Of a stretch of 20,000 nucleotides of DNA, positions 11,289 through 12,688 are shown one piece after another. Source of the DNA: Rozella allomycis CSF55 (taxonomy: Eukaryota); the NCBI GenBank assembly GCA_000442015.1, contig KE560790.1:49650-69649 (forward strand). The letters run 5' to 3'. The position numbers and the translations under genes are program-made. The notes under the pieces were generated by a model. The model was not told the DNA's origin. It did not search any database and saw only the letters and a list, made by a program, of their open reading frames with translations. The number at the start of each line of letters is the position of its first letter. The first letter of the stretch is position 1.

Positions 11289-12688
11289 TTAAAATACATA
11301 GTCTTTTGGGCTTAATGCAGTCTTTTTTACTCCCTTTGCATGCTTGGCTTTTCTAGCTAGATTAGTGACTTGCTTTGCTGATTGTTGAACGATCCTCTTT
11401 GCAACAATCTTCTTAACTTCTTCATAAGAGAGTCTAGGAGTGATTTTTGATTCTTCGTCTTCTTTATGTTGTTCATTTTCATCTTCAAAATTTAACTTTT
11501 CTACTAAATCTTCAACCAACGCTTCATTCTTCTCCTCGCTGTCAGACTTTTCATCGTTTTGTGAAAGTGAATCTTCACCATCTTCGGAATGGTTTTCACT
11601 ATCACTTTCTTCATCAAAATTATCGTCGATTTCGGCATCAAATTGTTTGAATTCTTTTTGCAATTTCTTCATAAAACCAGACGCTTCCACGTCAACGTCT
11701 AGTTTACCCTTTCGAACAATATCTTCAAATTTTGGTACAAACTCGTCTTCGTATTGAAATCTTTTTCCAAAGAATCTAACAATGCATTGAACATCTCTAT
11801 CAAAGTACCTAAATAAAGATGATTTAAAAGTCTTACATGTCAGCATTCTGATGACTCGTGGAGACCATCTGAGGAAAATCAATCAAAACTGGTTCATCTT
11901 CATCAGTCAATACAAGATTAAATTCATTAAAATCTGAATGTATTAACCCAACTTGAGCCAAATCGACAATCATGTTCATTAAAGTGTGGTAGAGTTTCTT
12001 TGGATCTTCAACTTCATCTACTTGGCACAACGGAGTTCCTTTGATGTATTCCATCACTATGCAATGTCTATTCACATCAATTGGTTTCGGTACACGGAAG
12101 CCGTGTTCATAAAGGATCAATATTAAGGCAACAATTATCTTTTACCTTCATAAACGCGAATTCTCTAGCAGCCGCAAGTCTGCTCATATACATCCACGAC
12201 GCATGTTTCCTCTTGCCCATGTAATCTCTATTAGCCTTTACAGTTCTGAATGATGTTCTTCCCAATCTATGAATTTTTAGGATATGCTCTTCGTAATCAT
12301 TGTCAACAACGAGATAAACATCTGATTCTTTTCCCACACCAATCTGTCTCCCGACTCCAATAACGACATCTCGCTTTAAAAAGGAATGCAAGGCCAAATA
12401 GTCGTATCCACCATAAGTAAGTCTATACCCGTCATCTAGAATATTAAGATGTATGTAATTATTACATTTCGCATTGCTCAATCTTGCAACTAGATTTAAT
12501 CTAGTCAAATTTCTGAGAATCTTATTCGTTTGCGTTTTCGCGATGTGAGTAATCAGTTGTGTTGGCACTATTTCGTGGTTCTTTGATCCCATTTCAGTCT
12601 AATAAAAAAACACAATAAAAATTACAGCAGTAAGTACTCTAAAGTCATCACTGGTCAGATACCGAAGTTGTTGCGCATCAAGTTTCAT
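11289..12688 (-). CDS. RIO2: RIO2 atypical kinase (40S biogenesis), ~428 aa, 5 exons
   Basis: [71 protein letters not shown] and YFDRDVQCI, with an acidic tail. Introns at 12599-12625, 12436-12465, 12118-12145 (GT-TG) and 11809-11836. Confidence 0.97.
12118..12145 (-). other. Non-canonical GT-TG intron (28 nt) in RIO2
   Basis: ATG AAG|gtaaaagataattgttgccttaatattg|ATC CTT TAT GAA restores FAFMKILYEHGF. The only frame-compatible AG nearby would give an implausible 7-nt intron. Confidence 0.75.

Follow-up and report, generated by a model that had tools for sequence, protein, structure and literature searches.

Few signals in eukaryotic genes vary as little as the AG that closes U2-type introns. 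Whether a conserved gene can depend on a different acceptor is the question raised by a 20,000-nt stretch of contig KE560790.1 of the parasitic fungus Rozella allomycis CSF55 (positions 49,650 to 69,649 of the forward strand; hereafter, the window). Here, the gene for the RIO2 kinase is interrupted by a 28-nt segment, intron 3 of our model, which starts with GT and ends in TTG, and the adjoining gene for an ATP-type PEPCK contains a 29-nt segment with the same ends. We regard both as probably genuine GT-TG introns of the U2 type, with UG as their sole usable acceptor; the use of UG in vivo, and its efficiency, we infer from the DNA sequence. Such introns would suggest that R. allomycis can splice at a site rejected by other eukaryotes.

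The RIO2 junction

On the minus strand, the RIO2 segment reads gtaaaagataattgttgccttaatattg (12145 to 12118), opening with GTAAAAG and carrying a T at position −2 (12119; A on the plus strand). The exon before it ends GAA TTC GCG TTT ATG AAG at 12146, and the exon after it begins ATC CTT TAT GAA CAC GGC at 12117. Left unspliced, the segment is read through and the frame runs into a stop, and the conserved RIO2 sequence 3′ of the junction belongs to the +1 frame, which is open only beyond a TAA within the 28 bases. The host gene encodes an N-terminal Rio2 winged helix followed by a RIO kinase domain and is similar to solved Rio2 proteins over its full length; its homologues carry PF09202 and PF01163. 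In yeast, RIO2 is an essential gene.

Comparison with solved Rio2 kinases places the junction to the base. The upstream exon sequence (12146-12598, minus) was matched from its second to its last residue (best E = 7.6e-44), with the FAFMK at its end aligning to residue 166 of human RIOK2 and residue 168 of Chaetomium Rio2. In the downstream exon (11839-12117, minus; E = 1.3e-33), the second residue, L, aligns to human residue 168 and Chaetomium residue 170. Its first residue, I, is therefore 167 or 169, respectively, so that the junction is gap-free and exactly 28 bases are removed, bearing out the original prediction of a 28-nt intron ending in TTG. Among RIO2 homologues, the corresponding E[FY]xFMK and [VAIT]L[YH] are contiguous in 59 of 116, as matched by pattern, and the spliced five-exon model runs through 428 codons without an internal stop.

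For this intron, a canonical 3′ end that would fit is lacking. A TTAAT is present just upstream of the acceptor, as had been predicted, its A being 5 nt away from the end of the intron, and our guess is that it constitutes the branch site. The next AG ends 78 nt from the donor and 50 nt inside the exon; since 78 mod 3 is 0 where 1 is needed, its use would be out of phase, at the cost of conserved residues, and here too the earlier description (an AG about 50 nt into the exon, out of phase) was accurate. There is no in-phase AG, leaving TTG as the only 3′ end that restores the frame. Other canonical GT-AG or GC-AG pairs near the site were likewise rejected by phase, and a 7-nt "intron" running to the AG inside GTAAAAG was rejected as too short. 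U12-type introns follow the donor consensus /RTATCCTT and the branch-site consensus TCCTTAAC; the donor here is GTAAAAGA, not /RTATCCTT, and we rejected this class as well.

At 30 nt, intron 2 of the same gene is a multiple of three and lacks a stop, and can hence be read through; unspliced, it would appear as a 10-residue insertion that is absent from solved Rio2 structures. Introns of this type are invisible to checks that rely on open reading frames.

For a view of the same position in other genomes, metagenome contigs were scanned with the downstream RIO2 exon, giving 76 loci, none above 63% identity. In a local tblastn search with the two flanking exons, both flanks could be aligned in 54 loci. 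The flanks are separated by 57 to 90 nt in 18 of these 54, and by 623 nt in one more (L046, which was not inspected); in the rest they are contiguous. We inspected 11 of the 18 gapped loci, leaving out near-duplicates, and found an intron at the identical phase-0 boundary in all 11, between FMK or FMQ and V/I-L-Y/H. Ten of these introns are GT-AG and one is GC-AG, and thus all end in AG. With the boundary shared by 11 fungal RIO2 loci, the Rozella segment occupies an old fungal intron position, the other known occupants of which end in AG.

The PEPCK segment and the introns of the window

The claim that GT-TG introns occur here twice, independently, is substantiated by the PEPCK gene, which adjoins RIO2, the two TG introns being 2.5 kb apart. 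Its segment (9639 to 9611) reads gtaatagtaattttcttatctaacttttg and lies between GAA CCT GCA and GCC ACT TTT TCA GCA TGT. The second-to-last residue of the upstream exon corresponds to residue 386 of Thermus PEPCK, and the downstream exon starts at 388; because residues 386, 387 and 388 are contiguous after removal of 29 nt, this junction is exact as well, and the numbering of E. coli PEPCK agrees with it (401 and 404). The motif TFSxCFG is present in 111 of 119 PEPCK homologues, fungal and other. All 25 of its commonest patterns, accounting for 87 of the 111, have EP and exactly two further residues ahead of it, matching the 29-nt reading.

Several other PEPCK junctions were considered and rejected. 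An AG 13 nt downstream would give a 42-nt intron in the wrong phase, and the same holds for the 78-nt intron that would end at the next AG after the one discussed below. An AG 27 nt downstream, giving a 56-nt intron, is in phase but deletes ATFSACFGQ. A 23-nt variant starting from a second GTAAT would add two residues that have no counterpart in homologues. As for the exact boundaries, TA..GG would give an identical mRNA in PEPCK, as would GG..TT, shifted by −1, in RIO2; GT..TG is the sole boundary pair that the two cases have in common.

Against what background do these two acceptors stand? We built stop-free models of nine genes and listed 44 introns within the window, distributed over genes for an ABC transporter (6), an Arp5-like protein (9), a ubiquilin-like protein (2), a small membrane protein (2), SMC4 (8), RIO2 (4), PEPCK (7), Pelota (4) and a DUF1295 protein (2). 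One further probable intron, 27 nt long, stopless and GT-AG, lies in the Arp5-like gene. The original prediction had spoken of two TTG acceptors among 50 introns; the two acceptors stand, whereas the total comes down to the 44 documented here plus the probable one. All but one of the 44 fall into a size class of 26 to 32 nt, with lengths of 26 nt (12 introns), 27 nt (9), 28 nt (11), 29 nt (7), 30 nt (2), 31 nt (1), 32 nt (1) and 54 nt (1). The donor is GTA in all 44 and GTAA in 34, RIO2 intron 3 starting with GTAAA. The last three bases are TAG in 28, AAG in 11, CAG in 2, GAG in 1 and TTG in 2; that is, 42 of the 44 end in AG, and RIO2 intron 3 does not. Apart from AAAG, the commonest four-base endings are ATAG and TTAG.

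In other respects, the two TTG segments resemble their neighbors. The GC content of RIO2 intron 3 is 0.25, compared to 0.24 for canonical introns, 0.35 for exons and about 0.33 for the window, and its interior dinucleotide score of 0.66 is within the canonical range of 1.28 +/- 2.06. The PEPCK segment scores 4.11, a value reached by 0.4% of exon windows. At each TG site, position −3 is a T and position +1 a purine (A in RIO2, G in PEPCK). A canonical intron of the ABC-transporter gene ends cttaatctag, with a branch-to-end distance equal to that of cttaatattg in RIO2. The modelled exons, about 14.4 kb of the window, contain no frameshift and no stop.

Table 1. Coordinates of the RIO2 and PEPCK features (positions within the window)
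Feature	Position	Strand	Description
RIO2 kinase CDS	11289..12688	minus	428 codons, 5 exons: 12688-12626, 12598-12466, 12435-12146, 12117-11837, 11808-11289
RIO2 intron 1	12599..12625	minus	27 nt, GT-AG
RIO2 intron 2	12436..12465	minus	30 nt, GT-AG, contains cttaatatt then ctag
RIO2 intron 3	12118..12145	minus	28 nt, GT...TTG, phase 0, TTAAT 5 nt from 3′ end
RIO2 intron 4	11809..11836	minus	28 nt, GT-AG
PEPCK (ATP) CDS	9118..10921	minus	536 codons, 8 exons, 7 introns (6 GT-AG, 1 GT-TG)
PEPCK GT...TTG intron	9611..9639	minus	29 nt, CTAAC 6 nt from 3′ end, joins KEPA to ATFSACFG

A public gene model extends over parts of both genes but bypasses both junctions. A protein search found P0001 (Rozella allomycis CSF55) to be 100% identical to part of the downstream RIO2 exon, and it was the only Rozella protein found in searches with RIO2 exon 4 and with longer proteins; it comes from the same locus. 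A fungal source also fits the GC content of the window (about 0.33) and its PEPCK being of the ATP type. The P0001 model (9118-12054, minus) begins at an internal Met, located 3′ of the RIO2 junction, and joins the C-terminal part of RIO2 and PEPCK into a single protein. It also swaps several of the tiny introns for longer ones, dropping conserved PEPCK segments that include ATFSACFGQ, which is lost to a 56-nt GT-AG intron. Since P0001 starts past the RIO2 junction and skips the PEPCK junction, it is uninformative on the T at −2. Searches with exon-sized protein fragments specific to this T returned no 100% match at near lengths, a result that is equally uninformative on the base. Over roughly 620 aligned codons, P0001 and the window show a single within-exon difference, a K in P0001 for an R in the window (PEPCK ...AQVA[R/K]LYEDA, about 10860-10900, minus); the site is variable among homologues, and the difference may reflect either allelic variation or an error in one of the two sources. 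Gene callers appear to fail on the 26- to 30-nt introns found here. P0001 is wrong, and annotation of the Rozella genome needs a tiny-intron model that permits TG acceptors.

Proposed splicing at UG and the alternatives

How might such an intron be spliced? In the mechanism that we propose, the GUAAA donor and the UUAAU branch site would be recognized as in the other ~28-nt introns of the genome. The shortness of these introns puts the acceptor 5 to 6 nt from the likely branch point, and the choice of acceptor would thus be largely positional, fixed mainly by this distance, so that an early AG-reading step would be unneeded. In the second step, G(−1) would still pair with the donor G(+1), with U tolerated in place of A at −2, possibly at lower efficiency. 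Exon ligation at UG would then produce the only mRNA that encodes an intact RIO2 kinase, and we propose an identical mechanism for the 29-nt PEPCK intron (9639 to 9611). The lineage may, as the original prediction reasoned, routinely tolerate TG acceptors. We tentatively extend the argument to the genome as a whole, in a form that we find plausible but would not yet bet on: the spliceosome may set the acceptor of ~28-nt introns by branch-point distance, with A(−2) no longer strictly checked, and a few percent of introns, meaning hundreds, may use UG as their only acceptor, including some in essential genes.

A number of observations weigh against the use of UG as sole acceptor. In the available text of the cited yeast studies, exon ligation in S. 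cerevisiae is severely impaired at a UUG acceptor, U(−2) being among the stronger defects (10.1101/212811), and a UUG reporter is not rescued by the relaxing Prp8 allele Q1594A (PMC12262433). For human genes, the excerpted report states that TG is never the sole acceptor and that AG-to-TG mutations activate other AGs, not the TG (PMC2374985). Within the window, both TG introns are located in neighboring genes only 2.5 kb apart, and the sole amino acid difference between the window and P0001 falls in the very stretch that holds them. Moreover, a yTnAy motif is found in only 18 of the 42 canonical introns, such that a local branch consensus is not defined, and 17% of exon windows score at least as high as the RIO2 segment, making composition alone weak evidence.

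The yeast data would sit comfortably with a real TTG that is a lesion, leaving the intron mostly retained or mis-spliced, with function supplied by a trickle of correct product or by a paralogue, or else missing from this strain; the change could be a recent mutation, or unproductive splicing could serve as regulation. The second step proceeds poorly on UUG in yeast (10.1101/212811, PMC12262433), as far as the accessible parts of these reports go, and in the related microsporidian E. cuniculi, tiny introns are described as being spliced at <20% (PMC6349667, in part), so low efficiency may be normal in the clade; a low splicing efficiency in Rozella would fit this figure. PEPCK also has downstream AGs that would give an out-of-frame 42-nt or an in-frame 56-nt intron, the latter being the one taken by P0001. 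However, RIO2 and PEPCK are otherwise intact over 428 and 536 codons, it would be a strange coincidence for two harmful lesions to have struck conserved genes no more than 2.5 kb apart, and the 56-nt PEPCK alternative removes ATFSACFGQ, whose motif is kept by 111 of the 119 homologues. That the only Rozella protein with RIO2 exon 4 is P0001, from this same locus, is weak evidence against a paralogue. On balance, we consider a lesion unlikely. The intactness of all other RIO2 and PEPCK exons, together with the clean exons of the window, argues against gene decay and a noisy assembly alike, and the latter bears on the possibility that TAG is the true acceptor and that the T at −2 stems from a minor allele or from an error in sequencing or assembly. 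Restoring A in place of T would turn each intron into a canonical one with an ending (ATAG or TTAG) among the commonest in the window, and the R/K difference from P0001 indicates some variation or error between sources in this region. Yet the error would be needed twice among 44 introns, hitting −2 and producing T on each occasion, next to about 14.4 kb of exons without frameshift or stop; at 1 error per 2,000 nt, our own arithmetic puts the expected number of A-to-T errors at 44 such positions at <0.01. The earlier judgment that two TTG acceptors make a sequencing error less likely therefore holds, two such errors being very unlikely, and we give this explanation little credence.

A further alternative keeps the removal of 28 nt and changes its boundaries or its chemistry, invoking frameshifting, bypassing or Ire1-type excision. 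Shifts of +1 to +3 (TA..GA, AA..AT, AA..TC) would give FAFMK-V-LYEHGF, with the V that is commonest in homologues, where GT..TG gives I. But I is also found in relatives (locus L052 and two homologue patterns), the shifted windows match no known splice class, and GT..TG alone is common to RIO2 and PEPCK. With a +1 frameshift, about 9 extra residues would appear at a point where homologues align without a gap, and for bypassing, there are no matching take-off and landing codons. We therefore deem these routes highly improbable and retain the reading of both segments as U2-type introns with a UG acceptor.

Comparison with known systems and further features of the window

GT-TG introns as such are not new, and the closest precedent, as documented in the available portions of two reports, is human, with U2-type GT-TG introns in 36 genes, for example, GNAS and TSPYL2 (Szafranski et al. 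2007, PMC2374985; Parada et al. 2014, PMC4176328). The Rozella segments share with these vertebrate introns a GT donor, a TG acceptor, a pyrimidine at −3, a purine at +1 and otherwise ordinary U2-type signals. According to the accessible text, however, human TG acceptors work only beside an AG that is thought to serve an early AG-reading step (PMC2374985). The AG 13 nt downstream in PEPCK is within the 28-nt limit given there for human TG-AG tandems. In contrast, the next AG in RIO2 is 50 nt away and out of phase, such that TG, rather than being an alternative to a nearby AG, would be the sole productive site. The Rozella introns are further distinguished from the human ones by their length of 28 to 29 nt and by their local share of 2 in 44. 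Among fungi, a long-read annotation of Ganoderma lingzhi lists 22 GT-TG among about 92,000 junctions, or 0.024% (PMC11590231, as excerpted), compared to 2 of 44 (4.5%) in a single 20-kb window here, both in conserved housekeeping genes.

In terms of size, the introns of the window (43 of 44 at 26 to 32 nt) belong to the same clade and class as the ultra-short introns described from R. allomycis S23, at about 30 nt, and E. cuniculi, at 23 to 30 nt (Whelan et al. 2019, PMC6349667). In its available text, that study describes the S23 introns as being without the 5′ and branch motifs of E. cuniculi and makes no mention of non-AG acceptors. Our search of the literature, which covered neither supplements nor the original genome paper, found no paper on Rozella splice-site dinucleotides.

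The change itself, A to U at −2 of UAG, is identical to that in engineered UUG 3′ splice sites of S. cerevisiae (PMC12262433; 10.1101/212811). As presented in the accessible part of the structural work, the yeast P complex cryo-EM structure shows the acceptor G(−1) paired with the donor G(+1) and A(−2) in a Hoogsteen-to-Hoogsteen pair with the branch adenosine, an arrangement clamped by the Prp8 alpha-finger, the RNaseH beta-hairpin and Prp18 (10.1101/212811). It is because of this pairing of A(−2) that UUG blocks exon ligation in yeast. Compared to yeast, Rozella would need either a relaxed second-step check or a tolerance of inefficient splicing. Departures from the GT/AG rule at the level of a whole lineage are on record for tunicates with divergent U2AF, in which about 95% of introns are non-canonical according to the excerpted report (PMC13326754) and where the departure is tied to changed spliceosome parts. 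Unlike in tunicates, 42 of the 44 introns in the Rozella window remain GT-AG.

Provided that RNA confirms it, what would be different here is UG as the sole productive acceptor, in RIO2, of a 28-nt intron, in housekeeping genes and at a frequency of 2 in 44. Structures account for the AG through the pairing of A(−2) with the branch adenosine. As for TG acceptors, good documentation exists only for human genes, where they depend on a nearby AG. If true, the Rozella case would show the AG rule being broken naturally and constitutively within the U2-type system, and a fungus with UG as sole acceptor in housekeeping genes would offer a natural system for the study of a relaxed second-step check. 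Candidate parts are the alpha-finger and beta-hairpin of Prp8, Prp18, Slu7, proofreading by Prp22, and the presence of U2AF35. It would also bear on the evolution of ultra-short introns toward the reduced spliceosome of microsporidia.

Several minor observations concern other introns and intron-like stretches of the window. In the Arp5-like gene, a TTG lies in phase 3 nt ahead of the AG of the 32-nt GT-AG intron at 13896-13927 (plus). This makes possible a GT-TG variant of 29 nt, adding one lysine, which would constitute a TG-AG tandem of the human type; homology does not discriminate between the 29- and 32-nt forms in this low-complexity region. The longest intron listed, 54 nt in SMC4 (17757-17810, plus), consists of two back-to-back 27-nt units, each GTA...TAG, and resembles two tiny introns around a zero-length exon; its removal as a whole keeps the frame open. 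In-frame, low-GC stretches of 24 nt with the form GTA...TG lie inside exons of the ABC-transporter gene (5720-5743, plus) and SMC4 (19833-19856, plus). Both are shorter than any verified intron and probably coding, and the ABC stretch looks coding.

An Rfam search and a tRNA scan of the window gave no matches. On the minus strand, an open frame of 503 codons (7551-9059) with a hydrophobic N-terminus has no Pfam match and is apparently intronless, whereas most genes of the window hold several introns. Finally, just 20 nt separate the divergent start codons of RIO2 (minus, 12688) and the Arp5-like gene (plus, 12709). This arrangement implies either that the 5′ regions of the two genes overlap or that the divergent promoter between them is extremely compact.
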